Counted from the stretch's first letter, positions 17,629 to 49,038 are shown. The stretch is DNA of 64,000 nucleotides from an uncultured Gammaproteobacteria bacterium (GCA_964504535.1 CAZDED010000002.1:82673-146672); one strand, 5' to 3'. A program made the numbers and translations. Notes: generated from the sequence alone by a model not told the origin.

Positions 17629-17646
17629 ATCTGATAAACTACAAAT

Positions 17647-24153: not shown

Positions 24154-24154
24154 A

Positions 24155-24403: not shown

Positions 24404-24409
24404 AGTCTA

Positions 24410-24418: not shown

Positions 24419-24441
24419 CAGTGACATTTTTTATGCAATAT

Positions 24442-24450
24442 TGGTAGAAT
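24442..24450 (+). promoter_or_regulatory. Extended -10 (TGgTAGAAT) 6 nt upstream of the ATG at 24457; candidate leaderless promoter for the second polycistron
   Basis: TGGTAGAAT at 24442-24450, spacer aaagta, ATG at 24457. Confidence 0.3.
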
Positions 24451-24456
24451 AAAGTA

Positions 24457-28694: not shown

Positions 28695-29422
28695 ATTCAT
28701 CAAAAAAGACTTTATCTATTGTTATTCCTGTATATAACGAAGAAAAAACAATTGGCACAGTGTTGTCAAATCTTGCCGTACTTAACATACCCAATGTGAT
28801 AAAAGAAATAATCGTAGTGGATGATGGATCAGGTGATAGATCAAAAAAAATTGTTGAGGGTTTGAAAAGCAAAGTTAAGGGTCTTCGATTTATTTCACAC
28901 GAGAAAAATAGAGGAAAGGGAGCTGCCGTCCAGACGGGACTTGAGGCAGCAACCGGTGATGTCCTTATGGTTCAGGATGCCGATTTAGAGTATGACACAA
29001 ACGATATTCCAAGATTACTAAAACCAATTCTTGATAACAAGGCAAATGTTGTATATGGTACCAGGCTGAGAAGAATGCCTAACGTAAAAAAAGAAGAAAA
29101 AACGTGGAGGTTTTTATTGCATTACATCGGAAACAGATGGCTCAGTCTTGTTACGAGTATATTATATTTTAATTGGGTGACAGATATGGAAACGTGTTAC
29201 AAACTTTTTTCAAAAGAATCTTTTAAGGGAATAACACTAAAATCAAAAACGTTTGATTTCGAACCCGAAATTACCGCTAAATTTTTAAAAAAAGGACTAA
29301 AAATACTTGAGATAGATATCAATACACGACCAAGAGGATACGATGAAGGTAAAAAGTTACACACCTTTAGAGATGGGTTTAAGGCACTATGGACCCTTGT
29401 GAAGTTTAGATTTATATCATGA
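28691..29422 (+). CDS. GT2 polyprenyl-phosphate glycosyltransferase (DPM1/GtrB-like)
   Basis: LSIVIPVYNEEKTI…IIVVDDGSGDRS…QDADLEYD. 243 aa. Confidence 0.8.
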   Translation: MNSSKKTLSIVIPVYNEEKTIGTVLSNLAVLNIPNVIKEIIVVDDGSGDRSKKIVEGLKSKVKGLRFISHEKNRGKGAAVQTGLEAATGDVLMVQDADLEYDTNDIPRLLKPILDNKANVVYGTRLRRMPNVKKEEKTWRFLLHYIGNRWLSLVTSILYFNWVTDMETCYKLFSKESFKGITLKSKTFDFEPEITAKFLKKGLKILEIDINTRPRGYDEGKKLHTFRDGFKALWTLVKFRFIS

Positions 29423-30663
29423 AGAACCTACGGCTTTCAATTTCAAGCGTTGTTCTGGCATGTTTATTGGTACCGGTCATCATGACATACCAGATATTCC
29501 CCGGAGATACTAATTATTTTCAGTTTGGGTTTATTTTCCTCGGATTATTCATAAATTTTTTGCTTGATATAGTAAAGATATCCGAAAAGAAATACTACCT
29601 GTCCAAATATATAGTATTTTGGACTTTGCTTGGGTTGTCTGTAGGTGGTGCTTTCATTTCAGCAATTATAGTACGGCACACTGTTGCTCCGGTATTTCAA
29701 ATTCACGATATTATCTTGCAGCTTGAAGCGGCAATTCAGTTCTTCCGTCATGGAATAAACCCCTGGGCAGCAACGTATGTAAATACTTACATGGCATCAT
29801 GGCATTATTCTGACACAATGGTAAATCCTGCACTCTATCATTTTGTTATGATGCCACTTTATTTATTGTTTTCCTTACCATTTTATTTTATAGCAAACCA
29901 CACAATAGGGTATTTTGATGGAAGAATTCCGTTATATTTTCTTTATTTTTCACTCCTTATCGCTGCATTTAAATTTATAAAAGATAAGGAAAAAAAACTG
30001 CTTTTCGTAACTCTTCTTGCATTTAATCCAGCAATGTTTTCATACACCCTAGAAGGAAGATCTGACGTGTTCATGTTTGCATTTTTCTTTGGTAGTTTAG
30101 TTTTACTTTCTAAAAAAAGATATTCCTATGCTGGATTATTGATGGGGGCTGCCTTTGCTGTAAAGCAGTCCATTTGGCCAATACTACCTCTGTATATTGG
30201 ATATATTTACTTTCTTTCAAAAGGAGTGTCAAAAACGGTAAAAAGACTTCTTTCTTTTGTCATTACGTTTCTTGTTCTCGTTGTTCCTTTCGTTCTCTGG
30301 AACCCCTTAGCTTTCTTGAATAGCACGGTATTATATCTTTCAGGCAATACTGTTCATAGTTACCCCATTTCAGGCTATGGACTGGGAGTTTTGTTGCATC
30401 AGGTAGGAGTAATTAAAGATCTCAACGCTTCATACCCATTTATTATTTGGCAAGTAATAATAATCATTCCTTTGCTTTGTTATTTATTATACTTACTTAA
30501 AAAAAATACGAATGTGCGAATGCTTCTTTTGGCATACGCTTTATTAGCCCTCGTGTATTGGTATTTATCAAGATATTTCAATAATAGCCATATGGGCTAC
30601 CTGACTATGGTTTTTTTGACAGCATATTTTTGGCCAGACAGTTCTGACAAAGATGAAAAATAA
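29419..30663 (+). CDS. Polytopic membrane protein, possible GT-C-type glycosyltransferase (DUF2029-like?)
   Basis: 414 aa with 10 or more TM helices. Loop HGINPWAATYVNTYMASWHYSDTMVNPALYHF. Family uncertain. Confidence 0.4.
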   Translation: MKNLRLSISSVVLACLLVPVIMTYQIFPGDTNYFQFGFIFLGLFINFLLDIVKISEKKYYLSKYIVFWTLLGLSVGGAFISAIIVRHTVAPVFQIHDIILQLEAAIQFFRHGINPWAATYVNTYMASWHYSDTMVNPALYHFVMMPLYLLFSLPFYFIANHTIGYFDGRIPLYFLYFSLLIAAFKFIKDKEKKLLFVTLLAFNPAMFSYTLEGRSDVFMFAFFFGSLVLLSKKRYSYAGLLMGAAFAVKQSIWPILPLYIGYIYFLSKGVSKTVKRLLSFVITFLVLVVPFVLWNPLAFLNSTVLYLSGNTVHSYPISGYGLGVLLHQVGVIKDLNASYPFIIWQVIIIIPLLCYLLYLLKKNTNVRMLLLAYALLALVYWYLSRYFNNSHMGYLTMVFLTAYFWPDSSDKDEK

Positions 30664-32374
30664 ATCCTTGTTTTTCCTCAATGAAGGTTTTCTCTTGATA
30701 GCTTTATTTATTCTGGGGTTGGTACTAAGAATTTATAGTCTCTCATCGTTTCCGAATGGATTTTCCCGGGATGAAGCATTTCTTGGGTACAATGCATATT
30801 CATTATTAATGACCGGAAAAGACATTAATTCACACTTTCTGCCACTTTTCCTCGAGTCATTTCTCTATACACCTGCTGGGTATTCATATGTTTCCGCATT
30901 GTTTATAAAAATTTTCGGACTGAGTATCTTTTCTGTCAGATTTGCCTCTGCTTTTTTTGGCGCGCTCACAATTCCTTTATTGTTTCTCCTAACAAAGTCT
31001 TTGTTTGCCCTTGATAAGGGAAGAAAGTATACAGAGAGAGTTGTTGGATTAATCGGATTGATCTCTGCACTTCTTCTCGCAACGTCTCCCTGGCACATAA
31101 ATCTTTCCCGCACCGCAAGTGTTTCAACCGTTGTTACTTTTTTTATAGTGTTGGGCTGTTATTTCTTTATACGGTCGATTTCGAGAAATAGCGCAAAGTA
31201 TATAGTTTTATCTTTTATCTGTTATTTAATCTCGCTATTTTTTTATATTGCGCCGTATTCATTTCTACCTCCTTTTATACTTCTTTCTTATTTTTTATTC
31301 AAAAATACAATCTCAAAAAACAATAAAAAAATCTTTGCAATATTATTTGTGTTGTTCATTATCCCAGTTCTTTATGTATTTTCATCACCGACTCTTTCAT
31401 TAAGGGTAAGATCACTCAGTCTAACGGAAAGTCCTTTAATAAAACTTGTTCTGCTTGAGGATACTGGACGGGATGGAGTTGGAAATATTACACCACTGAT
31501 TGCACGATCTTTTCATAACAAGGTAACAGTTATTTCTGATCTATTCTTTCAAAATTATTTTAGTCATTTCTCCTATAATTTTTTGTTTCGTGATACAGGC
31601 TTTCCTGAGCGATTCAGGATACCCGGATCAGGATTGTTCTTACCCATAAATATTGTACTTATCGCATTGGGGCTTTACTATTTGCTCCGTTCCGAAGGCA
31701 AGCTTAAATGGTTTCTGTTGGGATGGGTGCTTTTGGGGCCTGTGGGAAGCGGATTTGCCAGCGACGATGTCCCAAACCTGCAAAGGACTTTATTTTTGTT
31801 ACCCCCATTGTTAATCGTGTCTTCGATAGGAATAGTTAACCTTTTTATAAACATTCGAAAATCGAAGATTTTCATATATGTTATTGGTTTGATGTTCCTT
31901 GGTATGTTTTGCTACCAATTCATTTATTATATTCATCAATATTATTTTCATGAGAATGCTTACCGCCCATGGTATAGGCAGGATGGATATCAGCAGCTAA
32001 TTGAAAAACTTAATGGACTTACAGGTGGATATAAGGAAATAGTCGTTACAAATAGAGAATCGGCACCAACGATTTTTCTTCTTTTCTTTAACAAATTCGA
32101 TCCGTCTTTGATTCAAAATACCATTGCAAAAAGTACACTTCGGGATACTGATAGAATTAGTTTTTCAAATTACCATATTACACAAGAAGAGTGTCCATTA
32201 AGAGTTGAAATAGATCCTGTAACTGGGAAAAGAACATTAACAGGTGAAAAAGGAACACTGTATGTTAATAGTGGTTTTTGTAAAAATGAAAATCTTCCTC
32301 CATCAGTAAAAATTATAGAAACAATTTTAAGGGGCGATGGTTCGAAGGTATTTTTCATAATGAGGGTTGAGTAG
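30653..32374 (+). CDS. Family A GT-C glycosyltransferase, PMT/ArnT-like (GT39-type)
   Basis: GFSRDEAFLGYNAYSLL…SIFSVRFASAFFG. 573 aa. Confidence 0.65.
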   Translation: MKNKSLFFLNEGFLLIALFILGLVLRIYSLSSFPNGFSRDEAFLGYNAYSLLMTGKDINSHFLPLFLESFLYTPAGYSYVSALFIKIFGLSIFSVRFASAFFGALTIPLLFLLTKSLFALDKGRKYTERVVGLIGLISALLLATSPWHINLSRTASVSTVVTFFIVLGCYFFIRSISRNSAKYIVLSFICYLISLFFYIAPYSFLPPFILLSYFLFKNTISKNNKKIFAILFVLFIIPVLYVFSSPTLSLRVRSLSLTESPLIKLVLLEDTGRDGVGNITPLIARSFHNKVTVISDLFFQNYFSHFSYNFLFRDTGFPERFRIPGSGLFLPINIVLIALGLYYLLRSEGKLKWFLLGWVLLGPVGSGFASDDVPNLQRTLFLLPPLLIVSSIGIVNLFINIRKSKIFIYVIGLMFLGMFCYQFIYYIHQYYFHENAYRPWYRQDGYQQLIEKLNGLTGGYKEIVVTNRESAPTIFLLFFNKFDPSLIQNTIAKSTLRDTDRISFSNYHITQEECPLRVEIDPVTGKRTLTGEKGTLYVNSGFCKNENLPPSVKIIETILRGDGSKVFFIMRVE

Positions 32375-34322
32375 AATTTATATGTACAATTTATTCTCGC
32401 CTAGTTTCTTGTTCTTTTTTCTATACTCCTTTATTGCAATTTTCTTTTCTGTATATATACCGGGTAGTGTGGCGCTACGATTTTCAAAACTTAATCTGTC
32501 TCTTTTCTCATATATTGTTCTATCAGTAATCGTTGGAACTTCTCTGTGGGTTTTACAAGGATTTTTATTTGGTTTTATGAATGTTAGATTTATAACGTAT
32601 GTTTATGTGGGTGTCCTCTTTTTATTTTGGATACGTAATTTTCAATTTCGTTCTTTTAAATTGCCATTTAAAAGAACGGTAATTTTTGCGGTTCTTTTAA
32701 TAACATTTGGGGTCATAACACAAAATATACCAGCATTTTTTATGGGATCGGTAACAGATAAAGGTGTTTCATTCTGTTGTGTGGATGCAAGTGACAGTCT
32801 TTATTTTGCCTCACTCAGTCAAGAAGTAAAACGCACTATCCCTCCGCAGGAACCTGGCCTGGCCGACGTAACAGTAAAAAATTATCACTATTTATCAAAT
32901 ATTTTTGTTGCCGAGTTATCTCGAGTATTTTTCATCCCCTTACACATCTTACAATTTCAAGTTTCAGTATTATTTTTATCAGTTATGTTGGGGCTTGCCG
33001 CTCTATCATTTGGATTGGCGGTCGTAAAAAATTGGAAATATTCGCTATGGTTAGTATTTTTCTTGTATTTTGGAGGAGATTTTATTTGGCTTGTTTTGCT
33101 AATTCTCAATAAAAGTGTAAATCCATTTGTCATGAGTTCGCTGGAGGATGGAGCTAAATTTTTGAGCAATCCTCCTCGCGCTTTTGCTATTGTGCAGTTT
33201 TTTGGCGCACTTGTTCTTTTGTATTCATGGTTACAGTCAAAAAAAACACTTCTCTTAACTATAATTCTTGGAATTGTATGTGGTACCCTAATAGGGTTCA
33301 AAGTATATCTGGGGATCTTTGTTTTGTCAGGTCTTGCTGTGCTTTGCCTATATCAAATTTTAAGAAAAGAATTTGATGGATTACGGCTTTTAATTATTGC
33401 CGGTATAGTTTGTCTCATACTGTACCTACCCGTAAATGGTAACGCCGGTGGGATATATTTTACAGGCTTTTGGTCTTTTGAAAATTTCATATCTCAGCCA
33501 TATCTAAAGCTTAGTAACCTAGAATTGGCTAGAAGGATATTTATTGCTGATAACAAGATTCTGAAATCATATTTTTTCGAATCAATATTTATACTTGTCA
33601 CAATCTTTTCTTTTTTTGGTTCTAAAATCATTGGGGTAGTACAATCAAAGAAATCTATATCTCTTATTCCGTTTCAACTGCATATATTTCTATTGTCTGG
33701 GATTGTTGTAAGTTTTATTTTAGGATTTTTTTTCCAACAGACTTCGGGTGGATCAAATACATTTAATTTCATAGTTAATGTGTTTATAGTTGGAAGCGTT
33801 TATACTGCACTCTCTGCGTTTTTTCTTACATCATTAAAAAAACCAGTTGCTATCATGCTCGCAGCAATTATCATTGGGTTGACCGTACCAAGAGTAGTGT
33901 ATGAAACATATCGCAGTATTCATCGTCTTATAAACGGTCAGTATCAATCGGTAACTCCTTTTCAGCTGAGGGCTTTTGATTTTTTGAGGCATCAGACGAG
34001 GGGTAGAACTTTGGTTGACCGGACTGTTTTTGGGCTTGATGCGAGTAGTCCGTACGTTGCTTTTTTTGTAGATCAACCGATGTACTTGTCAGGTGTTCAG
34101 ATACTGGAAAGCCATGGTCTGAACGTATTTACAAAATCATCAAAAGTTGCAGTTATGATGGATCCACTAAAAGTTGAGCAAGCAAGAAACCTGTTTTTGA
34201 CAGAGAAAATTAAATATTTTGTGATTGGTAATTCAAGCCCTATTGCAACGGTTTCTGCGCAATTTTCAAAAGTCATATATTCAAATACTGAAGTCTCTAT
34301 CCTCCTGATTGCACACTATTGA
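32367..34322 (+). CDS. Large polytopic membrane protein of unknown family
   Basis: 651 aa, TM helices throughout. No recognised motif. Confidence 0.45.
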   Translation: MSRIYMYNLFSPSFLFFFLYSFIAIFFSVYIPGSVALRFSKLNLSLFSYIVLSVIVGTSLWVLQGFLFGFMNVRFITYVYVGVLFLFWIRNFQFRSFKLPFKRTVIFAVLLITFGVITQNIPAFFMGSVTDKGVSFCCVDASDSLYFASLSQEVKRTIPPQEPGLADVTVKNYHYLSNIFVAELSRVFFIPLHILQFQVSVLFLSVMLGLAALSFGLAVVKNWKYSLWLVFFLYFGGDFIWLVLLILNKSVNPFVMSSLEDGAKFLSNPPRAFAIVQFFGALVLLYSWLQSKKTLLLTIILGIVCGTLIGFKVYLGIFVLSGLAVLCLYQILRKEFDGLRLLIIAGIVCLILYLPVNGNAGGIYFTGFWSFENFISQPYLKLSNLELARRIFIADNKILKSYFFESIFILVTIFSFFGSKIIGVVQSKKSISLIPFQLHIFLLSGIVVSFILGFFFQQTSGGSNTFNFIVNVFIVGSVYTALSAFFLTSLKKPVAIMLAAIIIGLTVPRVVYETYRSIHRLINGQYQSVTPFQLRAFDFLRHQTRGRTLVDRTVFGLDASSPYVAFFVDQPMYLSGVQILESHGLNVFTKSSKVAVMMDPLKVEQARNLFLTEKIKYFVIGNSSPIATVSAQFSKVIYSNTEVSILLIAHY

Positions 34323-34354
34323 AATGTTACCTATACTATCAAGAGAGCTCGTAT

Positions 34355-36031
34355 ATGGTCAGAACTTATTTCATCAGGTATTGGGTAGTTTTTGCGGTTT
34401 TCATCGTCGCACTTTTCTTAAGAACCTATAATTTGTCTGAAATACCAGTTGGCCTTCATGGAGACGAGGCTAGTATCGGTTACACAGCATATTCTCTTCT
34501 CAATACACTTCACGATCAGAATGGTAAGTTCTTGCCAATCGCAATAGATCAATTTGGAGATTTTAGGCCAGCTGGGTATCATTATTTGGATATTCCATTT
34601 GTGGCTCTTCTTGGCCTCACTGAGTTTGCGGTAAGGCTTCCGGCAGCACTTTTTGGAAGCCTGGCTGTAGTTGCTATCTATCTACTGGTTTTTGAGCTTT
34701 TTGAGAATAGAAAAATAGCCGGGTTGAGCTCAATACTTTTGGCTGTGCTCCCGTGGGACGTAAATATTTCCCGTGCAAGTTCTGAGAGTGTAATAGCCAC
34801 TTTCTTCGTGATTTTAGGTGTATATTTTTACTTAAAATTCGTTAAAAGAAAGGCTTTTTCTTCTCTGTATCTAGGATTAAGCAGTGTTTTATTTATTGTT
34901 AGTTTTTTCTTTTATCATGCACATAGGTTTTTTGTTCCAGCACTGTTTCCATTTCTTTTTTTGATTTCTTTTTTTGCTTTTCGTCCCTCAAGAAGAAAAA
35001 TTATTGGTGGTATAGTTCTGTTTGGCGTTGTTCTTCTTGGATTGTCTTTCTTTGTTCTATTTGGACAAGGAACAGGGCGTGCATCTGAGGTGAGTCTTCT
35101 TAGTATTCCTGGTGGTACAACGAATCTAAAACAGGCTATGGATGAAGAGGGAACACTCAACCCTCTTATAAATAGGTTTTACAATAATAAATTAATTTAT
35201 TACGGAAGATTTTTCGTAAATTTTTATTCACAGCATCTGTCAGGGGACTTTCTTTTTGTTAATAACGGGAATCCAATACGCTACAGAATCCCATTTACCG
35301 GAAATCTCTATTTTGTTATGCTTCCATTCTTGATCCTTGGATTTGCCTTTTTGCTTTCACAAGGATTGAAAGAGAAGAAATATCATTATTTGTTGCCTAT
35401 TGTCTGGTTACTTATTGCACCGGTTCCTGCAGGGCTTACATGGGAAGATTTACCTAACGTTATACGTGCAAGCATTTTGATCCCCGCCTTATTAATAGTT
35501 ACCGCTTTCGGTTTCCATGAGGCAGTGTCATTATTTAAGAATAAAAAAATAAAAACACTCATTATTGTTGTCTCAGGATTGCTTCTTGCGCATAATTTCC
35601 TATATTTTTGCCATAACTATTACTGGAGATCAAAGATTCATGAGCCATGGCACAGGAGTGGAGCCGAAAAAGAATTATTGTTCCAGGTTGGACAAATAGC
35701 AAAACCAACCGACTCAATAGTTATGACTACAGAGAGAAACAATAACCTTATCTTTTACCTTTTTTATAATAAATTTGATCCAAAGAAATTCCAGGAAATA
35801 GGATCACCGAAAGAACACGATGGGTTGAAGTTTGAAAATATTACATATACTGGAAATTCATGTCCTTTAAGGGGTGAGAGTGAAGAGATTGTCACAGTGA
35901 TACCAGATACTATTTTTGTAGACAAAGAGGATTGCCCACTACCGAAAAATTCAGAAATCCTTAACACAATAAAATTTTCTGATGGGGTTCCTGCCTTCAA
36001 AATTGTAAAAACAGTCGATGTTAAAAAGTGA
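34355..36031 (+). CDS. Family A GT-C glycosyltransferase, PMT/ArnT-like (GT39-type)
   Basis: GLHGDEASIGYTAYSLL…FAVRLPAALFG. The track's ORF begins at a TTG at 34319; ATG 34355 (MVRTYF) is the more plausible start. Confidence 0.65.
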   Translation: MVRTYFIRYWVVFAVFIVALFLRTYNLSEIPVGLHGDEASIGYTAYSLLNTLHDQNGKFLPIAIDQFGDFRPAGYHYLDIPFVALLGLTEFAVRLPAALFGSLAVVAIYLLVFELFENRKIAGLSSILLAVLPWDVNISRASSESVIATFFVILGVYFYLKFVKRKAFSSLYLGLSSVLFIVSFFFYHAHRFFVPALFPFLFLISFFAFRPSRRKIIGGIVLFGVVLLGLSFFVLFGQGTGRASEVSLLSIPGGTTNLKQAMDEEGTLNPLINRFYNNKLIYYGRFFVNFYSQHLSGDFLFVNNGNPIRYRIPFTGNLYFVMLPFLILGFAFLLSQGLKEKKYHYLLPIVWLLIAPVPAGLTWEDLPNVIRASILIPALLIVTAFGFHEAVSLFKNKKIKTLIIVVSGLLLAHNFLYFCHNYYWRSKIHEPWHRSGAEKELLFQVGQIAKPTDSIVMTTERNNNLIFYLFYNKFDPKKFQEIGSPKEHDGLKFENITYTGNSCPLRGESEEIVTVIPDTIFVDKEDCPLPKNSEILNTIKFSDGVPAFKIVKTVDVKK

Positions 36032-37508
36032 TAAAAAAAAATCATTCGATTGGGTCTTGATAGGAATTATAGTTCTCTCGGCAGTCTTAAGATTTTATAA
36101 CTATGGTAGTAGATGGGGTCTTGCTTATGATCAGGCGTGGTTTGCAGTCATTGCTCGCCATGCACTTGCAACCCTACAACTTCCGTTCTTAGGTCCTTTT
36201 GCTTCCGGAGGTCCATTTCAGACTGGTGGGGAATGGTTCTGGATAGTAATGATTGGGACAATGCTTAACCCACTGAGCGTGATTTCTCCGTGGGTTTTTA
36301 TAACCTTGCTTTCGATTTTTCAGGTGTATCTCCTTTATGTACTTGGTAGTCATTATGGTGGAAAAAGTTTGTCTTATATTCTTGCTTTTTTAGGTGCCGT
36401 ATCCATATCCCAAGTTCTTCAGGCAACAAATCTTACCAATCAAATGCCGTCATCATTGTGTGCATCATTGCTCCTTTTGGCTATTGTTTTATACCTAAAG
36501 AAAGAAAAAAACAGATATCTTTTCTTTTCCGGATTTGCTGTCGGGTTATCATCCTCGATTCATCTTCAAGGTGTTCTTCTTCTCATACCTTTATGTGGAT
36601 TTTTAGCACTTACGAAAACAATTAGCCCAAAGAAATTATTGCTGGTTGGGATAGGAGTATCTTTGCCTTGGGTTCCAGTACTACTAATTGATATGCAGAA
36701 TAATTTTTACAATACCAAAAATATGCTTATGTACTTTACTAATTCCCAAAGTAAAGTTTCGTATGATGAACTCGGGAGAAGGTGGCTGACTTTTATAACG
36801 GATTATGTTCCTTCGTCATGGGGAAGAATAGTGGGAGGGAACATATTTTTTGGATATTTAGAAATATTTTTAGTAGGTCTAACGTTTCTTTTGGGAATTC
36901 TTAAAAAAGTAATAGATAAGAAATGGATGATAGCTGTGGTATCGACGATACTTATGACCATAGCCCTTCGATATATAAGGACACCACTTTATGAGAACTA
37001 TACTACTTTTATTCATCCATTTGTTCTCCTTTTGATTGCCTGGTCCATCTGGAATTTATACAAACGTCAGAGATTTATCGCCGTCATAATACTTGTGGCA
37101 ATAGTATCTTTTAGCGTATTTGCATTATGGAAAGATATTGGCAATAGTACTAATTTCACAAACATAACGACTAAAAGGTATGTTTTATTTTTGAAAAATA
37201 AATTCCCCAAGGAGAAATTTGCTATTTACGATTATGAATATAATAACAAGCAAAATACATTGCCTCTTGTTCTTTATCTTCAAACAGAAGGCCTATTGGA
37301 TGACAAGGGGCATAGAATTGGCATGGTAATCGTTGCTAATTCAAAAATTAGAATAGATCCGCATAAAACAATACATGGTGGTAATGGAGGATATCAGCTC
37401 GTTGACCTTACTGCATCTGAAAGCGCTGAGCTCCAGAAAGGGAGATGGGCATTTGTAAATCCTTCTGTCATTTACAATTCTGTACAATATTGGTACAAGG
37501 ATAAATGA
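36018..37508 (+). CDS. Family D polytopic membrane protein ('WDQ' family, GT-C-like, uncharacterised)
   Basis: 496 aa. GLAYDQAWFAVIARHA…PFLGPFASGGPFQTGGEWFWIVM. Paralogue of 40841..42106. Confidence 0.5.
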   Translation: MLKSDKKKSFDWVLIGIIVLSAVLRFYNYGSRWGLAYDQAWFAVIARHALATLQLPFLGPFASGGPFQTGGEWFWIVMIGTMLNPLSVISPWVFITLLSIFQVYLLYVLGSHYGGKSLSYILAFLGAVSISQVLQATNLTNQMPSSLCASLLLLAIVLYLKKEKNRYLFFSGFAVGLSSSIHLQGVLLLIPLCGFLALTKTISPKKLLLVGIGVSLPWVPVLLIDMQNNFYNTKNMLMYFTNSQSKVSYDELGRRWLTFITDYVPSSWGRIVGGNIFFGYLEIFLVGLTFLLGILKKVIDKKWMIAVVSTILMTIALRYIRTPLYENYTTFIHPFVLLLIAWSIWNLYKRQRFIAVIILVAIVSFSVFALWKDIGNSTNFTNITTKRYVLFLKNKFPKEKFAIYDYEYNNKQNTLPLVLYLQTEGLLDDKGHRIGMVIVANSKIRIDPHKTIHGGNGGYQLVDLTASESAELQKGRWAFVNPSVIYNSVQYWYKDK

Positions 37509-39163
37509 GGGATAATAGTATAAAATTATTAAAGAGTTATATGCAGAAAAAGATATTGTTATTATTTGGGATTGTTTTTGTTGCGTTCATTGTAAGGTTT
37601 GTTTTTCTTGGGAGCATTGCACCATCTTTAACGTGGGATGAAACCGCATGGGGATACAACGCTTATTCGCTAGGAATTGATGGAAAGGACGAATTCGGTA
37701 AATTTTTGCCGATGACATATCTTGAATCCTTTGGAGATTTTAAACCACCGGTGTATGCGTACCTTGACATTCTCCCTATTAAATTATTTGGCCTGACTGA
37801 GTTTGCAACCCGCTTTCCATCGGCATTTTTTGGAACGCTCACCGTTTTTCTGACATTTTTTCTTGTTAAAGAAATATTTGGTAAAGAAAAAGAAGATTTA
37901 GCGCTTATAGCCTCTTTGTTGTTGGCAATTTCTCCCTGGCATATAATGTTGTCCCGCGCTGCATTTGAGGCAAATGTTGCGAGTTTCTTTATTGTACTTG
38001 GTGTTTTTCTGTTTTTAAAAGCCGTGCGGGAAAGAATAGTCCTTCTTCCTTTTTCTATTCTTTCATTTGTTCTTGCTATGAATACATTTAATAGTGCAAG
38101 AATTGTAGTTCCGCTTCTCGGTATTTTGGTGATTATTGTATTTCATAAAAAACTCCTAAAACATATAAAAGTATCAGTAATTTCCCTCATTCTTGGTGTC
38201 GTGCTTTTAGTGCCCCTTATCAGTTTTATGGTTTCTCCACAAGCAAAATTAAGATTTAATGAGGTGAACATATTTACCGATATTGGCGTAATAGATAGAA
38301 CAAACCAGGAAATAAAAAATGATAATAATTCAATTTTCTCCAAAGTGCTGCATAATCGTAGATTTGCTTATGGAGTAGAGTATATCCATCACTATCTTGA
38401 TAATTTGGCTCCTCAATTTCTTTTCATTAAGGGTGATGGAAATCCTAAGTTTTCTCTTCAGGATGTTGGGCAACTATACATATGGGAAATCCCATTTTTT
38501 GTAGGTGGAATAATTTTATTATTTAGGAAAAGAGAAAAGCATTGGTGGTTAGTACCATTATGGTTATTGATTGGTATTGTTCCTGCGGGGTTTGCGAGAG
38601 AAACACCACACGCACTTCGTATTGAGTCTGCACTTCCTACATTTCAGATATTTACAGCAATTGGATTTTATTATTTTACAAAGTACCTTATAAAATTAAA
38701 GAACAAAAGAATGGGGATTGGGTCTCTATATGTTCTTGGACTTATCATTTTGTTTGGCTTTGTTTATTTTGTCCAAAATTATTTTTTCCATTATTCACAT
38801 GAATTTTCAGGAGAATGGCAGTATGGATATAAGGAGTCTATAGCATACGTATCTTCAGTGCAGAATAAATACAAGGATGTATATATAACAGAAAGCCTGG
38901 GAAGACCGTATGTGTACTACCTTTTTTATCAGAAATATGATCCAGTTACATTTCGTCAAGAAGCAGACATTTATAGAGAAGTTTTTGGTTTTGTACACGT
39001 TAAAAGTTATTCAAATCTTCACTATACCGACCAAATCGGTAAAATAAATAAAACTAATGCTCTTTATCTATCGACTCCGGGAGAAAAACCTGAAAATGCA
39101 AATACAATAAAAGAGTTCAAGTTATTGAATGGGCACACCGCTCTTGTTGCATACACCTTATGA
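37505..39163 (+). CDS. Family A GT-C glycosyltransferase, PMT/ArnT-like (GT39-type)
   Basis: SLTWDETAWGYNAYSLG…TEFATRFPSAFFG. 552 aa. Confidence 0.65.
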   Translation: MRDNSIKLLKSYMQKKILLLFGIVFVAFIVRFVFLGSIAPSLTWDETAWGYNAYSLGIDGKDEFGKFLPMTYLESFGDFKPPVYAYLDILPIKLFGLTEFATRFPSAFFGTLTVFLTFFLVKEIFGKEKEDLALIASLLLAISPWHIMLSRAAFEANVASFFIVLGVFLFLKAVRERIVLLPFSILSFVLAMNTFNSARIVVPLLGILVIIVFHKKLLKHIKVSVISLILGVVLLVPLISFMVSPQAKLRFNEVNIFTDIGVIDRTNQEIKNDNNSIFSKVLHNRRFAYGVEYIHHYLDNLAPQFLFIKGDGNPKFSLQDVGQLYIWEIPFFVGGIILLFRKREKHWWLVPLWLLIGIVPAGFARETPHALRIESALPTFQIFTAIGFYYFTKYLIKLKNKRMGIGSLYVLGLIILFGFVYFVQNYFFHYSHEFSGEWQYGYKESIAYVSSVQNKYKDVYITESLGRPYVYYLFYQKYDPVTFRQEADIYREVFGFVHVKSYSNLHYTDQIGKINKTNALYLSTPGEKPENANTIKEFKLLNGHTALVAYTL

Positions 39164-40839
39164 AATTATTGAAAAAACCTGTTTTTTTACTTATTGCGAT
39201 CATACTCTTGGCGGTAAGTCTTAGAACCTACAATATTGGCAAAGTACCAATAAGCCTTAATTGGGATGAAGTAGCTCTTGGATACAATGCATTTTCAATT
39301 CTTAAAACGGGGAATGATGAATATGGAAAATTCTTGCCGGTCGTTCTCCAGTCTTATGATGATTATAAGCCGGCGCTTTATGCTTATTTTGATATCCCAT
39401 TTGTTGCGATTTTAGGACTGACCGAAGCTGCTGTAAGACTTCCTTCTGCAACTGCTGGCGTAGCAGCGGTGTTTCTTATTTATTGTATCGTCTTGGAGCT
39501 TATGGGACAACGCAAGGTCCAACTCTTTGACCACGAAGTTGCTTCGACCTGGGTAGCTCTTGCAACTTCTTTTTTCTTGGCAATTTCTCCATGGCACATC
39601 CAATTCTCGCGAATTGCTTTCGAGTCAAATGTTGGTTTAACGCTAAATCTGTTTGCTTTCCTCCTATTTCTAAAGGCTCTAAAAAAACCAATGCTGCTTC
39701 CATTATCATTTATGGTTGCAGCATTAAATATTCATATGTATCAAAGTGAAAGAGTATTCTCTCCTTTGTTGATAATCATACTGTCGTTAATTTTTTACAA
39801 AAAGCTTTTGACTTTTAAGAAATGGGTATTTGTCTCTATTATTGCAGCTTTTATTGTAGCGTTACCGCTTATTGTCTACATTTTGACAAACAACAATGCA
39901 CTGATGCGGGCAAAAGGTGTTAGTGTATTTTCGTCCCAGGAATTGGTCTCGCGTTCCTCAAAAAAATTATTGCAAGACGATCTAACAGGAAACACTATCG
40001 GAAAAATATTAGACAACAGAAGACTAGAATTTGGAAAAGCGGCAGTTGCCGGGTACATCTCCCATTTTGACCTCAATTGGCTTTTTATATCGGGAGATAT
40101 TGCTCGCCACCATGCCCCTTTCATGGGTTTGCTTTATCTCTTTGAATTACCTTTGCTTCTTATCGGAATTTATGCTCTCATCTTTTTGAAGATAGAAAGA
40201 AAATATAAGTTGGCATTTTTTGCATACTTTCTACTAGTGCCTATACCTGCCTCTATTACAAGTGGGGTGCCGCATGCTGTAAGGACTTTAAATTTTGAAG
40301 GGACTTGGGAGTTATTTATTGCTCTAGGACTGATTGTTTCAATTCAATTTATCCTCAATCAAAGAAAAAAATTAATAAAAAATTGCTTTAAACTATTTGC
40401 TATTTTCTATTTACTTTTTACTATTTTTAACATTTCCTATTTCCTCAATCAATATTTCGTGCAGCTTAACTACTATGATGCAAAAGACTGGCTATATGGT
40501 TATAAACAGGCAATTTCATATGTTGATTCGGTTAACCATAAATATGACAAAATTATTGTAGAAAATACCTCACCGTTGGATCAGTCATATATGTTTTTCC
40601 TTTTCTATCTAAAGATTGATCCGGCATACTATCAGTCTTTAGGCGGTACAGCAAGCGGAGGTTTTAGAGAGACACACAAAGGATTTTATAATTATGTTTT
40701 CGAGCCATTATCAACTGCCAAAGAAACGGGGAGAATTTTGTTAGTTGGAAAGCCCTCCGATATTTCCGAGAGTGCAGGGGGTAAAAAAATAATTCTTTTC
40801 CCGGATGGTACTCCTGCAATTGCCATAGGAGAAAAGTAA
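39160..40839 (+). CDS. Family A GT-C glycosyltransferase, PMT/ArnT-like (GT39-type)
   Basis: SLNWDEVALGYNAFSIL…TEAAVRLPSATAG. 559 aa. Confidence 0.65.
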   Translation: MKLLKKPVFLLIAIILLAVSLRTYNIGKVPISLNWDEVALGYNAFSILKTGNDEYGKFLPVVLQSYDDYKPALYAYFDIPFVAILGLTEAAVRLPSATAGVAAVFLIYCIVLELMGQRKVQLFDHEVASTWVALATSFFLAISPWHIQFSRIAFESNVGLTLNLFAFLLFLKALKKPMLLPLSFMVAALNIHMYQSERVFSPLLIIILSLIFYKKLLTFKKWVFVSIIAAFIVALPLIVYILTNNNALMRAKGVSVFSSQELVSRSSKKLLQDDLTGNTIGKILDNRRLEFGKAAVAGYISHFDLNWLFISGDIARHHAPFMGLLYLFELPLLLIGIYALIFLKIERKYKLAFFAYFLLVPIPASITSGVPHAVRTLNFEGTWELFIALGLIVSIQFILNQRKKLIKNCFKLFAIFYLLFTIFNISYFLNQYFVQLNYYDAKDWLYGYKQAISYVDSVNHKYDKIIVENTSPLDQSYMFFLFYLKIDPAYYQSLGGTASGGFRETHKGFYNYVFEPLSTAKETGRILLVGKPSDISESAGGKKIILFPDGTPAIAIGEK

Positions 40840-40840
40840 C

Positions 40841-42106
40841 ATGACAAAATTTCTATTAAAGTATTTTTCCAACAAAACCACACTGTTGATTTTTATTCTT
40901 TTATTAATCGTTCAAATTTTTACCCGTTTTTCATACCCCGACACGAAAAGTGATTTTAGCTGGGATCAAATAGACAATGCATGGGCGGCAAAAAATATAA
41001 TTTATGATCATAAATTCCCATTGGTAGGAATGCAGGCGAAAGGAAATACAGGTTTTTATATTGGGCCCTATTATTACTATTTGATAACTCCTTTCTATCT
41101 AGCTACTGATCTTGACCCATATGCATCAATTGTTATAGCAGGATTTACAAGTATAATTATGTTTTTTCTGACCTACCTATTGGTAAGGGATATGATGGGT
41201 GAGAAAATTGCTTTATTTGCTACTTTTTTTGAAGTTTTTTCGTTCTATATTATCGGTCTTGACAGGACACAATGGCCTGTCAATCTTATTGCGCCCGTTT
41301 CGCTTATTATATTTTATTCGCTCTATAAAATTATGAACGGTAACGTACGGTATATACTGTTGCTAATTGCTTCATTTGGATTTTCACTTCACGTCCATTT
41401 TACTTCAGTATTTTATATTCCATTAATAATATTGTGTTTGCCTTTTTTTCCAAGAAAAAAACTATCGATAAAATATTTATTTTTATCGTTTCCAATACTA
41501 CTATTTTTTATCTTCCCGATAATTATTTCCTCATTTGGCAAAGGAAGCACTCATGTTCTTGGGTATCTTAGCAGTTCGTATCTGGGTTTTCATTTAAGGA
41601 GAGTTTTTCAAATAATTGGTGATGGTTTTATTGAATATGAAGGAATAGCTGATTTTCAATACTTCAAAAAAATAGGCTTATTATTGTTTCCTACATTTCT
41701 TTTAGTTTCTTTTATTGCGTTTTATAGAACAAGTAAAGTGTATTTAATATATCTCAGTTTAATTTGGGTCATTTTGCCGTGGCTATTTTTTGCCACATAC
41801 GGCGGTGAAATTTCAAATTATTATTTCTCAATAACTCGACCTGTCGTCTTGATATCATTAGCGTACCTTTTATATATTCTCTTCGAAAATAAAAAGATAA
41901 TCGGAAAGCTATCTGTATTTGTAATCCTCTTGCTGTATGTGTATGTCAACTCCAAACAATTCTTTGCATTCAAGGCTAGGGGACTTGGATATTACCGGGA
42001 AAAGGTGGATGAAAAGATTAAGAATGGAGTGGATATCGAATTTAGTCAGGGCAATCCCGAGTCATATCTCTATTTCATTAAGAAACAAAGATATGACAAA
42101 AAGTAA
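40841..42106 (+). CDS. Family D polytopic membrane protein ('WDQ' family)
   Basis: 421 aa. DFSWDQIDNAWAAKNIIYDHKFPLVGMQAKGNTGFYIGPYYYY. Aligns with the 36018 ORF. Confidence 0.5.
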   Translation: MTKFLLKYFSNKTTLLIFILLLIVQIFTRFSYPDTKSDFSWDQIDNAWAAKNIIYDHKFPLVGMQAKGNTGFYIGPYYYYLITPFYLATDLDPYASIVIAGFTSIIMFFLTYLLVRDMMGEKIALFATFFEVFSFYIIGLDRTQWPVNLIAPVSLIIFYSLYKIMNGNVRYILLLIASFGFSLHVHFTSVFYIPLIILCLPFFPRKKLSIKYLFLSFPILLFFIFPIIISSFGKGSTHVLGYLSSSYLGFHLRRVFQIIGDGFIEYEGIADFQYFKKIGLLLFPTFLLVSFIAFYRTSKVYLIYLSLIWVILPWLFFATYGGEISNYYFSITRPVVLISLAYLLYILFENKKIIGKLSVFVILLLYVYVNSKQFFAFKARGLGYYREKVDEKIKNGVDIEFSQGNPESYLYFIKKQRYDKK

Positions 42107-42159
42107 TTTTTCTGTTGCACTTTATTTGGCAACAATGATACGATCATAATCTGGTTTAT

Positions 42160-43224
42160 ATGAACAAGAGCAAGATATTAATCACGGGTGGAGCAGGGTT
42201 TGTAGGAACAAACCTCGTTAGTTTTTTACTGGGGAAAAAGGAATATGAAATAGTTGTTTTCGATAAATTGGATCATCATTCAGACGAAGAACAAGCAAAA
42301 AAAATTACATACGTTAAAGGCAACATTATTAATAAGTCTGATGTAGAAAAATTATTTGCTCAACATGCACCGTTTGAGGGGGTATATCATTTGGCTGGCG
42401 AGATGCCAAACAAACTTGCGGATGCAAAATTAATGATGCAGACGAATGTTGATGGAACATCAAATCTCATTTCAGAAGCAGTGAAATATAAAGCAAAGTT
42501 TTTTATATTTGCTTCAAGCAATGTGACTTATGGAATACCAATTGAACTCCCTGTAACGGAAAACACCCAACTTAAGCCTCTTGAGGTATATGGGAAGAGT
42601 AAGGAGGAGGCCGAAAAAGTCCTCCAGAAATACAACGGGAAAATAAATATCCAGATGTTCAGGTGCCCGGTTATAACCGGCGTAGGAAGACTTGGACTGC
42701 AGGCAATTCTGTACGAATTCATATCAGAAGACAAGAAGGTATATGTTCTAGGCGGAGGGAACAATAAATACCAGTTTGTTGACGTAGAGGATGTAGTGCA
42801 GGCAATGACGACAGCAAGCAAGATTAAAGGGTTTGACGTATATGTGATAGGGGCAGACGAAATCTTAACACTGCGTGAGTTATATCAAAAAGTTATTGAA
42901 TTTGCCGGCAGTAAATCAAAAATTGTATCACTCCCCTGGGGACCAGCCCTTTTTGCACTTTCAATTTTAGATAAAGTTAACTTTTCCCCGCTTGGAGTAT
43001 ATCAATACACTATGATGGGAAGATCCATTTACGCGGATACGACGAAAATAAAAAAGAAACTTTCCTGGAAACCTAAAAGAACAAATGCAGACACATTCAT
43101 AGAAAATTATAAATGGTATAAGAAAAATAAAGGAAATTTTGTTGTTATTGGCGGGAGTAAGTCTTCGCCAAATAAAAGTGTTCCAAAGATGGGGATTTTA
43201 AAGATTCTTAAAATGTTTTCATAA
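42160..43224 (+). CDS. NAD-dependent epimerase/dehydratase (SDR) family protein
   Basis: Rossmann fold ILITGGAGFVGTNLV and catalytic YGKSK (YxxxK). 354 aa. Confidence 0.7.
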   Translation: MNKSKILITGGAGFVGTNLVSFLLGKKEYEIVVFDKLDHHSDEEQAKKITYVKGNIINKSDVEKLFAQHAPFEGVYHLAGEMPNKLADAKLMMQTNVDGTSNLISEAVKYKAKFFIFASSNVTYGIPIELPVTENTQLKPLEVYGKSKEEAEKVLQKYNGKINIQMFRCPVITGVGRLGLQAILYEFISEDKKVYVLGGGNNKYQFVDVEDVVQAMTTASKIKGFDVYVIGADEILTLRELYQKVIEFAGSKSKIVSLPWGPALFALSILDKVNFSPLGVYQYTMMGRSIYADTTKIKKKLSWKPKRTNADTFIENYKWYKKNKGNFVVIGGSKSSPNKSVPKMGILKILKMFS

Positions 43225-43228
43225 TATT

Positions 43229-44872
43229 ATGAAGCATGTACATAAATTTCTGGTCGCTATTATAATTCTTGCAGCAATTCTTCGCCTTTTTGATCTTAAT
43301 GGTGTGCCTCCTTCTGCCTCACTCGATGAGTCTTCTATCGGGTATAATGCATATTCAGTCATCAAAACAGGAGGGGACGAATTCGGTACATTTCCACTCG
43401 TTTCTCAACGTGGATATGATGATTATCGTCGTTCAACCTATTTACTTCTTGTCGCGCCCTTTGTAGTTGTCATGGGGCTGAATGTTCTGGCTGTCAGACT
43501 TCCAGCAGTGATTCTTAGTATACTAACTGTTTGGGCGGTTTTTGAGATCGCTCGACTTTTGGTTAAAAAACCTTCTAAATTCAGTGATGAGTTAGCATGC
43601 TTTTCGGCATTTCTACTTGCGATTAGTCCGTGGCATATTTATATTTCTCGTATTGGGCATGAATCAAATGCTTGTCTTTCTTTTTTAGTATTTGCGATTC
43701 TTTTTTTCCTGAAAGGACTTGAAAACAAAAAACTACTGTTGGTTTCAGTTCTTTTCTTTGCTTTGTCTATGGTAAGTTACTATTCGGGGCAAGTCATCGT
43801 TCCTCTTCTCGTTATCTCATTGGCTGTAATTTATAGAAAAAAACTCTTAGAAATGATACTTGTTGACAAAAAATCCAAGATTGTAACTTTATTTGTTTTG
43901 TTGTTGGCAATACCTGTCGTGTGGTCCGTTTTTTCACCCGATGCTCTTATCCGCTTTCGCGGTACGAGTACTTTTTCACCGAGTTCACACGAGCAACTAT
44001 TTAAAGAAAGGGTGTTATTGCGCAATGAAGCTGTTGCAAAGCATGACCTCATTGGTAGCATTATCTACAATCAACGGTTGTTTCCTCTTGTTGTTTTAGC
44101 TCAGGGATATTTTGATCATTTTAATCCTCAGTGGTTATTCTTTAATGATTCTAACGGTATTTTTAAAGCTCCCCATATTGGGTTGTTATACCCATGGCAA
44201 ATTCCGTTCATATTATTCGGTTTGGTTGCCTTCCTAGTCAGTAAAAATGTCGGCATATCAATGAAATTTACAGTTTTGATATGGTTTCTATTGGGGGCAT
44301 TACCTGCGTCTATCGCAACACAAACACCACATGCGATGCGCTCATACAATATATTACCAACATGGGAAATATTTACAGCTTTTGGAATAATAACTCTGAA
44401 ATTTTTATTCTATAAATATAAATTGATAACCGGTGGATTAGTAGCTATTCTTGTTTGTTTTTCATTACAATCATTTTTTACGAATTACTTCGTTAATTTT
44501 CCGAAAGAGCATTCTAAGTCTTTCCAATATGCATATGGCAAATCACTGGGGTATGTCATCGCAAATCAGGATAAATACCAAAGAGTAGTAATCTCGAACA
44601 AAGATAATATGTTCCAGTCTTACATGATATTTTTGTATTACAGTAAATATGATCCAAACTTGTATCAAAAACAGGGTGGGACAATATCAGGTGGCTATGA
44701 AGCGACACACTTTTTCGGAAAATATGAATTTAAAGAAATTGATTGGACAAAAGAAAAAACATCAAACACTTTGTATGTAGTAAATCCTCAGGAAATACCC
44801 TCAAATGCTCAGGTATTATATGTAGGAAAATACTTAGATAATACAAAAGGGGCAATAGTTCTTACGCGTTGA
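43229..44872 (+). CDS. Family A GT-C glycosyltransferase, PMT/ArnT-like (GT39-type)
   Basis: SASLDESSIGYNAYSVI…LAVRLPAVILS. 547 aa. Confidence 0.65.
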   Translation: MKHVHKFLVAIIILAAILRLFDLNGVPPSASLDESSIGYNAYSVIKTGGDEFGTFPLVSQRGYDDYRRSTYLLLVAPFVVVMGLNVLAVRLPAVILSILTVWAVFEIARLLVKKPSKFSDELACFSAFLLAISPWHIYISRIGHESNACLSFLVFAILFFLKGLENKKLLLVSVLFFALSMVSYYSGQVIVPLLVISLAVIYRKKLLEMILVDKKSKIVTLFVLLLAIPVVWSVFSPDALIRFRGTSTFSPSSHEQLFKERVLLRNEAVAKHDLIGSIIYNQRLFPLVVLAQGYFDHFNPQWLFFNDSNGIFKAPHIGLLYPWQIPFILFGLVAFLVSKNVGISMKFTVLIWFLLGALPASIATQTPHAMRSYNILPTWEIFTAFGIITLKFLFYKYKLITGGLVAILVCFSLQSFFTNYFVNFPKEHSKSFQYAYGKSLGYVIANQDKYQRVVISNKDNMFQSYMIFLYYSKYDPNLYQKQGGTISGGYEATHFFGKYEFKEIDWTKEKTSNTLYVVNPQEIPSNAQVLYVGKYLDNTKGAIVLTR

Positions 44873-44884: not shown

Positions 44885-45661
44885 ATGAAAAAACTCTCGG
44901 TTGTTCTTGCAACTTTTAATGAAGAAGAGAATCTAGATAGGTGCTTGAGTGCCGTAAAGGATTTGGCTGATGAGATTGTTATAGTTGATGGGACTTCCAA
45001 AGATAAAACAGTTGAGATTGCCAAGTCATTTAAGGCTAAAGTCTTTGTTACAACCAATCCTCCCAATTTTCACATCAACAAGCAAAAAGCTATTGATCTT
45101 GCAACCGGAGATTGGATATTGCAACTTGATGCCGATGAGGTAGTGTCTAAGGGACTTTGCGAGGAGATAACTGACATTTTAAAAAACGATCCGGTAGAGA
45201 ACGGATACTGGATGCCAAGAAAGAATTATTTTTTAGGGAGATTTCTAATGAAGGGTGGTCAGTACCCTGACTACACGGTCAGACTTTACAGAAATGGAAA
45301 AGGAAAGCTGCCCCAAAAAGATGTACACGAGCAGGCAGTGATTGAAGGAAAAATAGGCTACCTTAAGGAGGCATTACTTCATTATCCCTATAAAGACTTC
45401 AATTTTTACGTTTCTAAATGGATGCGCTACAACCACCTTCTCGCTTCTCAAATACATGACGATTTAAAAAATAAGAATTTTATATTGCGTATTTACTATG
45501 GTTTTGCTTATGTTTTCGCAAAACCGGCGCACTGGATGTTGACTGCATACGGAAGGCATAAAGGGTTTTATGATTCATGGCAAGGTTTTGTATTTGCTAT
45601 AATGTCAGCACTACGTTTTCCAGTCTCTTACATTTTGTACCTACAACATAAGTATGAATGA
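44885..45661 (+). CDS. GT2 glycosyltransferase (KdtX/WaaE-like subfamily)
   Basis: LSVVLATFNEEENL…IVIVDGTSKDKT…QLDADEVV. Confidence 0.65.
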   Translation: MKKLSVVLATFNEEENLDRCLSAVKDLADEIVIVDGTSKDKTVEIAKSFKAKVFVTTNPPNFHINKQKAIDLATGDWILQLDADEVVSKGLCEEITDILKNDPVENGYWMPRKNYFLGRFLMKGGQYPDYTVRLYRNGKGKLPQKDVHEQAVIEGKIGYLKEALLHYPYKDFNFYVSKWMRYNHLLASQIHDDLKNKNFILRIYYGFAYVFAKPAHWMLTAYGRHKGFYDSWQGFVFAIMSALRFPVSYILYLQHKYE

Positions 45662-46631: not shown

Positions 46632-46667
46632 TTTGGTTTTTAGCCTCTGTTTCTCTATAATAAATTC

Positions 46668-48978: not shown

Positions 48979-49038
48979 TTACCTTTCAGTTTGGCATGGA
49001 AAATAGTAACCGTTTGGGTTAGAATAAGCCAAGTAAAA

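Follow-up and report, generated by a model that had tools for sequence, protein, structure and literature searches.

Six paralogous membrane proteins encoded in a 64,000-nucleotide stretch of DNA from an uncultured bacterium (GCA_964504535.1 CAZDED010000002.1:82673-146672) are supported as glycosyltransferases (GTs) of the GT-C class and the PMT_2 superfamily, their fold being confirmed by a confident structural model and by structure searches. The whole stretch is called the window here; coordinates are those of the window, and genes are named by their start positions. The reading that is favoured, with confidence a little better than even, is that the paralogues assemble or decorate a surface glycan on the outside of the membrane, stepwise, from polyprenyl-phosphate sugars. 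The initial annotation had described a tandem array of GT39-type enzymes at 30653-44872 and had proposed protein O-glycosylation. That interpretation is partly supported. The GT-C class, the fold, the acidic pair and the age of the duplications stand, while protein O-glycosylation is kept as a rival explanation.

The six core ArnT/PMT-like paralogues are 547 to 576 residues long, and all are encoded by intact open reading frames (ORFs) on the plus strand. They are 10471 (10471..12201; 576 residues from TTG 10471, or 565 from ATG 10504; loop motif QDETAIGYNAYS), 30653 (30653..32374; 573 residues; RDEAFLGYNAYS), 34319 (34319..36031; 570 residues from TTG 34319, or 558 from ATG 34355; GDEASIGYTAYS), 37505 (37505..39163; 552 residues; WDETAWGYNAYS), 39160 (39160..40839; 559 residues; WDEVALGYNAFS) and 43229 (43229..44872; 547 residues; LDESSIGYNAYS). 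The starts given earlier, 34355 and 10504, are the first ATGs within ORFs that open at TTG, and either start is possible; a start at 10504 gives a 4-base overlap with the preceding gene, and such overlaps recur across the cluster. Gene 10471 is the sixth core paralogue and lies beyond the interval 30653-44872. The loop motif x-D-E-x-x-x-G-Y-(N/T)-A-(Y/F)-S is present in all six proteins between residues 32 and 59. It was followed about 55 residues later by a helix of the form (F/A)(A/S)(V/T)R(L/F)(P/A)(S/A)A in five of the six, the exception being 43229, which has LAVRLPAV. Both motifs had been noted at the outset as shared. The loop motif holds for the six core proteins but not for 5161, which lacks the GY(N/T)A(Y/F)S part and is a distant relative only, and the TEFAVR-type helix holds for all of the core proteins but 43229.

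Pairwise identity among the six, measured by BLASTP over nearly their full length (E 1e-32 to 1e-96), was 26-37%, slightly lower than the 30-40% first estimated but in agreement with the description of divergent copies. Conservation was strongest in residues 1-160, where mean identity among paralogues was 40%, compared with 22-26% for the remainder, including the C-terminal extracytoplasmic domain. None of the six was truncated or frameshifted, and orthologues elsewhere span 94-100% of the query. Pseudogenes and assembly duplication were ruled out, since the listed genes are all intact and too divergent to be identical copies. Gene 39160 overlaps 37505 by 4 bases, and the array genes are joined by overlaps of 4-14 bases or gaps of 1-53 bases. 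Promoter and terminator scans of 27000-46900 gave signals no higher than shuffled expectation and, therefore, operon boundaries cannot be drawn.

For 37505, an AlphaFold model computed from an alignment of 25 sequences was confident (pLDDT 85.7, pTM 0.87). Its membrane domain of about 13 helices spans residues 1-435 and is followed by an alpha/beta domain of about 115 residues at the C-terminus (436-552); the first extracytoplasmic loop contains two short helices. A hydropathy scan found 8-12 membrane segments per paralogue, the last ending near residue 425. The initial annotation had made the catalytic acidic pair a matter for proper alignment. When aligned, D45 and E46 were invariant in all six paralogues and in the 25-sequence family alignment, and in the model they lie at the start of the first loop helix, just past the first transmembrane helix. 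When the model was compared with the PDB using Foldseek, STT3, ArnT, AglB and PglB were found at E values of about 1e-8, and Pmt4 and Pmt1/2 at 1e-4 to 1e-3. ArnT was the nearest structural neighbour, followed by ALG12 and STT3, with Pmt later and ALG9 also among the top matches. These ranks indicate that the fold is generic GT-C and not specifically Pmt-like. The C-terminal domain modelled alone gave generic alpha/beta matches only, and neither an MIR-like fold nor one resembling a carbohydrate-binding module was found. With a polytopic membrane topology, an acidic first-loop motif and likeness to solved GT-C structures, the proteins have the features of the GT-C superfamily.

A single-sequence search of solved structures returned nothing relevant; the family profile alone reached ArnT, and did so weakly. 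When the profile was aligned with E. coli K-12 ArnT (hhalign E 0.0024, probability 12%), LTWDETAWGYNAYS was placed against LLWQPDETRYAEIS, with the W and Y residues coinciding and the DE pairs two positions out of register. The same low-probability alignment pairs FGLNEFAVRFPSAFF with FGANNFGVRAGVIFA, the FxVR helix. In the profile match to a C. metallidurans ArnT chain (E 0.011), the KPP motif of the family lies opposite the KPP of ArnT. Because the ArnT alignments cover both the loop and the helix, these signature motifs are common to a lipid-glycosylating GT83 enzyme.

The family assignment was examined with curated profiles. Pfam PMT_2 (PF13231, gathering cutoff 26.1 bits) was exceeded by five of the six core paralogues (10471, 39.0 bits; 30653, 38.1; 34319, 37.7; 37505, 47.2; 43229, 45.9) and also by 36018 and 5161. 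The remaining core protein, 39160, scored 21.4 bits, under the cutoff, but its homology is clear by BLASTP. The GT39 family is defined by PMT_4TMC and, in eukaryotic members, by a lumenal MIR beta-trefoil. The role of MIR is described in PMC7759382. Neither PMT_4TMC nor MIR was matched in the paralogues by Pfam at E <= 0.01, and the 37505 model contains no beta-trefoil. Pfam PMT (PF02366) was passed by three of the six and had no match in 39160 or 43229. Strict membership among the GT39 protein O-mannosyltransferases is not supported, because PMT_4TMC and MIR are missing, other structures are nearer than Pmt and only half of the paralogues reach the Pfam PMT cutoff. Of the PMT_2/GT39 signature reported initially, the PMT_2 superfamily and the GT-C fold are retained and the GT39 membership is not. 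Assignment to ArnT/GT83 also failed. The ArnT equivalog of NCBIfam (PRK13279, cutoff 567 bits) was matched by two paralogues only, at 23.5-25.3 bits, and the arn operon is absent, with no ArnA, ArnD, ArnE or ArnF in the window and with ArnB-like and ArnC-like scores below their cutoffs. As the only NCBIfam matches, to Agl23 and ArnT, were weak and far under the cutoffs, no family-level name can be given to the paralogues. In public records such proteins are labelled "glycosyltransferase family 39 protein" or "4-amino-4-deoxy-L-arabinose transferase-like", names that are best taken to denote the superfamily and no more.

For 37505, the closest named relatives occur in Candidatus Levybacteria/Levyibacteriota and "Patescibacteria group" genomes. 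Judged from these relatives, the source is a Candidatus Levybacteria genome from within the candidate phyla radiation (CPR)/Patescibacteria. Loci that share their gene order with Levybacteria and are 50-78% identical to the window proteins are found in many third-party metagenome-assembled genome records under the title "uncultured Gammaproteobacteria bacterium"; such titles appear to be placeholders or mislabels. A protein identical to 37505 was found on an 84-kb ENA metagenome contig (L001, ERZ4216102 NODE_112), which ends 60 bases upstream of 37505. This assembly break inside the array may reflect strain variation or the difficulty of assembling paralogues. At E <= 1e-30 the family comprises 2,680 cluster representatives (clusters at 50% identity), and at E <= 1e-3 the number rises to 12,421.

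To compare loci, 21-kb neighbourhoods were taken from 80 loci of species-representative genomes, essentially all Levybacteria plus one Roizmanbacteria. They hold 1-7 family members, most commonly 3 and usually 2-5. The number of copies, which had been called unusual, is thus not exceptional among related Levybacteria. An orthologue of 37505 was present in all 80 loci, with a median identity of 54%, and in 76 of them it was immediately followed by an orthologue of 39160, so that the two form a conserved gene pair. When orthogroups were cut at 45% identity, about 27 were obtained in the 80 neighbourhoods, the 37505 group being present in 80 loci, that of 39160 in 72, 30653 in 17 and 43229 in 16; 34319 and 10471 had no orthologue among these neighbourhoods. 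The orthologues of 37505, 39160, 30653 and 43229 (41-54% median identity) are closer than the window paralogues are to one another. It follows that the duplications predate the species, in agreement with the old duplications postulated at first, and recent lineage-specific amplification is ruled out for these four genes. Copies are still being gained or lost, because 34319 has no counterpart in the closest relative (L002), where the rest is collinear at about 80% identity; the gene was either recently gained here or lost there.

The order of the conserved core is GT4 (24457), YfhO (25518), GT2 (27759) and a GT2 resembling dolichol-phosphate-mannose synthase (DPMS; 28691), then, after a variable slot, 37505 and 39160 and, after another such slot, GT2 (44885) and the epimerase 45654. 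In these slots lie differing mixes of GT87, PTPS_related and 30653-, 32367-, 36018-, 40841- and 43229-like genes. In the 80 loci, orthologues of a second epimerase gene, 42160, were confined to L002, L014, L047 and L065, each time immediately upstream of one of the best 43229 orthologues, and the two genes therefore form a cassette.

The array is part of a single strand-coherent gene cluster of about 60 kb and about 35% G+C that fills the window. Pfam and hhalign identified at least 18 GT-C genes, namely the six core paralogues, four distant PMT_2-like genes, four PTPS_related, three YfhO and one GT87. The window also encodes ten GT2 and three GT4 enzymes, two methyltransferases and three epimerases or dehydratases of the short-chain dehydrogenase/reductase type, of which 45654 scores above the GalE equivalog cutoff. 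Three short GT2 enzymes on the plus strand are candidate polyprenyl-phosphate-sugar synthases. The best solved relative of 28691 (28691..29422; 243 residues) is the dolichol-phosphate-mannose synthase 5mlz (E 3e-15), with ArnC and GtrB next among solved structures and with NCBIfam matches to AglJ, PpgS and ArnC below cutoffs; in 57 of the 80 loci the gene is retained at this place, immediately upstream of the array. The other two are 3210 (3210..3980; 256 residues; best NCBIfam matches PgfS and ArnC, under cutoffs) and 15428 (15428..16141; 237 residues; ArnC, PgfS, AglJ and PpgS, under cutoffs). Candidate Wzx/MOP-type flippases are encoded on the plus strand at 16174..17628 (Polysacc_synt_3, 158.5 bits; MOP flippase NCBIfam match below cutoff) and, from the domain scan, at 47719..48978. 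A GtrA-type flippase had no Pfam match in the window, and the intergenic gaps leave no room for one.

From this context, the following scheme may be proposed. The short GT2 enzymes of the cluster would make polyprenyl-phosphate-sugar donors in the cytoplasm, and the donors would be flipped over the membrane, perhaps by the Wzx-like proteins. Each paralogue would then move one sugar from a flipped donor to an acceptor at the outer membrane face, using the invariant Asp-Glu pair of its first extracytoplasmic loop. The acceptors would be surface glycans, growing or finished (wall polysaccharide, teichoic-acid-like polymer or lipoglycan, for example), and each paralogue would add a different sugar or linkage. 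The 37505-39160 pair is part of a core common to Levybacteria, and the other copies would be species-variable accessory cassettes by which the surface glycan is varied. The use of polyprenyl-phosphate-sugar donors is most likely, given the three DPMS/ArnC/GtrB-like GT2 enzymes in the cluster, and transfer of single sugars is expected by analogy with established GT-C biochemistry. The same analogy suggests that transfer occurs outside the membrane.

Glycan acceptors are favoured for several reasons. All of the characterised bacterial PMT_2-domain GT-C enzymes tabulated in the Rismondo-Gründling review (PMC8035078) target lipoteichoic acid, wall teichoic acid or wall polysaccharide; the gene context is polysaccharide-like; GT-C-rich systems, such as those of the mycobacterial envelope and the lumenal pathways of the endoplasmic reticulum, extend glycans; and the cassette of epimerase and GT-C suggests that the donor sugar varies. 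Several observations weigh against a glycan acceptor. Pfam PMT (cutoff 22.7 bits) was passed by 34319 (41.2 bits), 37505 (42.5) and 10471 (29.2), with 30653 below it (17.8). Pfam scans of the window revealed no recognisable initiating phosphoglycosyltransferase, Wzy/WaaL-type polymerase or ligase, LCP ligase or GtrA-type flippase and, consequently, a complete polymer pathway cannot be traced. Moreover, some bacterial GT-C enzymes do glycosylate proteins.

The possibility was therefore considered that the paralogues are protein O-glycosyltransferases, each acting on its own set of secreted or membrane-anchored proteins rich in Ser/Thr (S-layer proteins, pilins or juxtamembrane linkers, for example). 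Bacterial GT-C enzymes are known to glycosylate Ser/Thr-rich protein regions (PMC12041528, PMC6151902). A C. bescii "GT39" of similar size is required for protein glycosylation (PMC6151902), and streptococcal GT-C enzymes with GtrB or PgfS partners glycosylate Ser/Thr-rich regions, these enzymes being of the YfhO type (PMC12041528). Protein O-glycosylation is considered a live, though rather improbable, rival. The only candidate acceptor in the window is the short Ser/Thr/Pro-rich linker of the ORF at 977-1645. The ORF encodes a small protein with an N-terminal membrane anchor and no reliable Pfam domain. Its linker had been singled out initially, and residues 47-76 are indeed the most Ser/Thr/Pro-rich 30-residue stretch of the window (50%). 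A mixed pathway was also considered, in which one or two members, for example 37505-39160, start a glycan on a protein or lipid anchor and the other GT-C enzymes extend and branch it outside the membrane, much as in mycobacterial O-mannosylation and lipomannan/lipoarabinomannan (LM/LAM) assembly or in the lumenal steps of eukaryotic N-glycan synthesis. The conserved core pair beside variable accessory copies would fit such a division of labour, as would the presence in one cluster of four to five GT-C families, including GT87, which extends mannans in Actinobacteria (PMC6031116). ALG12 and ALG9, which extend lipid-linked glycans, are also among the top structural neighbours. However, the sequences do not separate initiators from extenders; we regard a mixed pathway as unlikely, to the same degree as protein O-glycosylation.

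Modification of membrane lipids in the manner of ArnT, in which a sugar placed on a lipid head group alters surface charge or resistance, was judged very improbable. It is true that ArnT is the top structural neighbour and the sole solved relative reached by the sequence profile, and that the window encodes ArnC-like GT2 enzymes as well as an aminotransferase resembling ArnB (364 bits). However, the best scores, 25 against 567 bits for ArnT and 364 against 631 bits for ArnB, are far below the equivalog cutoffs, and the missing ArnA, ArnD, ArnE and ArnF also argue against it. CPR bacteria are not known to make lipid A, and a single lipid target would poorly explain six to ten paralogues.

Returning to surface glycan assembly, the proposal can be extended, as a tentative and rather doubtful possibility, to an assembly line outside the membrane in which about 20 GT-C enzymes of four to five families build the main surface glycan, with 37505-39160 as a heteromeric core and with swappable cassettes of GT-C and sugar-modifier genes. 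About 5% of a Levybacteria genome of about 1 Mb would then be spent on building up a glycan sugar by sugar from lipid-linked donors. The universally conserved and translationally coupled 37505-39160 pair would parallel Pmt1-Pmt2 or EmbA-EmbB. Within the CPR, the whole would correspond to mycobacterial arabinogalactan/LAM assembly or to the lumenal part of eukaryotic N-glycan synthesis. The cassettes would make the surface differ from species to species, in the service of host attachment or phage evasion.

Close parallels among known systems include the three-component transmembrane glycosylation systems of Gram-positive bacteria, such as GtlA/GtcA/GtlB, CsdC/CflA/CsdD and GacI/GacK/GacL (PMC8035078). 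As in those systems, a PMT_2-domain GT-C with an acidic motif in an extracytoplasmic loop is encoded near GT-A enzymes for a polyprenyl-phosphate sugar, although here the latter are candidates that fall below the equivalog cutoffs, and a Wzx-type flippase may be the third part, as with GacK. The three-component systems reside in wall-glycopolymer loci, and the polysaccharide-type context together with this precedent suggests a glycopolymer acceptor here. However, each of them has one GT-C, with few per genome, whereas the window encodes six close and four distant PMT_2 paralogues and eight GT-C enzymes of other families; furthermore, the window lacks a GtrA-type flippase and the host is a CPR bacterium and not a Firmicute. 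ArnT (GT83) transfers 4-amino-4-deoxy-L-arabinose to lipid A, whereas the present proteins are multi-copy, are not accompanied by an arn operon and are unlikely to use a lipid A acceptor. They differ from the GT39 enzymes, the fungal and animal PMT/POMT and the actinobacterial Pmt, in lacking MIR and PMT_4TMC, in not having Pmt as the nearest structure and in their polysaccharide-like context. To the mycobacterial GT-C set (EmbA/B/C, AftA-D, PimE and the GT87 mannosyltransferases), no sequence relationship with Emb or Aft could be detected; the proteins here have about 550 residues compared with at least 1,000, carry no recognisable carbohydrate-binding modules and belong to a genome of about 1 Mb. 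The combination of a GT-A polyprenyl-phosphate-sugar synthase with GT-C enzymes and an epimerase resembles streptococcal protein O-glycosylation by Pgf and GtrB/PgtC2 (PMC12041528), PgfS is a top NCBIfam match for two window GT2 enzymes, and YfhO-type enzymes are present. However, the protein-glycosylating enzymes of streptococci are of the YfhO and not the PMT_2 type, and there are no adjacent Ser/Thr-rich adhesins here.

The enzyme class and general mechanism are already known, and the finding is not surprising in mechanism. What stands out is how dense and diverse the GT-C genes are, with at least 18 of them in a 60-kb cluster that equals about 5% of a genome sized like a related complete 1.14-Mb Levybacteria chromosome (L042), as well as a lineage-wide core pair with accessory copies that resemble cassettes, in a CPR lineage with an uncharacterised surface. 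A literature search on GT-C expansion in CPR, Levybacteria and Microgenomates found no paper on GT-C arrays in the Levybacteria lineage; earlier CPR genome papers mention only multi-copy GT2 enzymes of the dolichol-phosphate mannosyltransferase type and GT87. The CPR/Patescibacteria are abundant, mostly uncultured and thought to be attached to hosts, and their surface chemistry is almost unknown. Judged by this locus, Levybacteria seem to commit much of their genome to transferring sugars from lipid-linked donors on the outside of the membrane. The conserved enzyme pair, the candidate donor synthases and the cassette genes of the locus are targets for glycan analysis, for in vitro assays and for relating surface variation to host range. 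The locus is also a warning for annotation, as the labels "glycosyltransferase family 39" and "protein mannosyltransferase" do not prove a protein acceptor.

The tandem array at 30653-44872 is real, but two family members in it had been overlooked and two other genes interrupt it. The first overlooked member, 36018 (36018..37508, plus strand; 496 residues), is a divergent PMT_2 protein (Pfam PMT_2, 35.7 bits; hhalign probability 41%) in which Asp-Gln (AYDQAWF) replaces Asp-Glu. The other, 40841 (40841..42106, plus strand; 421 residues, about 11 helices), also has Asp-Gln (SWDQIDNAW), lacks the C-terminal domain and gave weak BLASTP matches to 43229 and 37505 and an hhalign probability of 95%; genes like it occur in 40 of the 80 loci. 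The interruptions are 32367 (32367..34322, plus strand), a protein with about 16 membrane helices that belongs to no known family, and the NAD-dependent sugar epimerase/dehydratase 42160 (42160..43224, plus strand; Pfam Epimerase). ORFs like 32367 were found in 28 of the 80 loci, and the protein could be a polymerase, a ligase or a transporter. Two further relatives lie outside the array. The distant PMT_2 member 5161 (5161..6708, plus strand; 515 residues; Pfam PMT_2, 40.7 bits; hhalign probability 89%) keeps Asp-Glu (FTDEAIY), and at the loop motif its sequence is FTDEAIYTRWSQ. The fourth divergent relative in the window is probably 59444 (59444-61579; 711 residues), with a weak hhalign link to the PMT_2-like family (probability 30%), a GDEWYY motif after the first helix and a C-terminal extracytoplasmic region of about 300 residues without a known domain.

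Upstream of the array, a plus-strand block at 6711..30663 contains the GT-C genes of other families, PTPS_related (6711, 12179, 13723 and 19432), YfhO (8372, 21089 and 25518) and GT87 (29419), with GT2 and GT4 enzymes interspersed among them. The PTPS_related proteins are mutually 26-31% identical and the YfhO proteins 29-34%; the C-terminal 70-120 residues or so of the former weakly resemble the C-termini of the latter (BLASTP E 1e-4 to 1e-8). Four polytopic proteins of the window have no family: 3982, 32367 and the pair 52887/54363. None of them was linked to the PMT_2-like family by hhalign, and a permissive Pfam scan of six unassigned membrane ORFs gave no usable match. The pair (52887-54380, plus strand; 54363-55856, minus strand) encodes convergent 497-residue membrane proteins that are 38% identical, each with about 10 helices and a C-terminal soluble part, and their 3' ends overlap by 18 bases.

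A downstream glycan-biosynthesis block at 44885..63032, mostly on the plus strand with 54363-55856 and 56697-57707 on the minus strand, includes GT2 and GT4 enzymes, the GalE homologue 45654, methyltransferases and 59444, together with a PseC/WecE-like aminotransferase (51030), a WecD-like N-acetyltransferase (52184) and a DltB-like MBOAT protein (61629). The aminotransferase, which is the ArnB-like protein mentioned above, scored 392 bits for PseC, just under the cutoff of 423. By sequence, 51030 and 52184 (51030-52900) suggest that an amino sugar is made, either a 4-acetamido-4,6-dideoxyhexose or one related to it. The MBOAT protein scored 165 bits against a cutoff of 375. The next ORF, from 63034, encodes a membrane-anchored protein, runs past the window end and has a weak AlgX SGNH match (E 0.0012), and the two are a possible O-acylation or D-alanylation system for a glycopolymer. 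At the other end of the window, just ahead of the glycan cluster and on the opposite strand, a tRNA-Glu gene with anticodon CTC (1793-1865, minus strand) was the sole RNA gene identified by the Rfam and tRNA scans.

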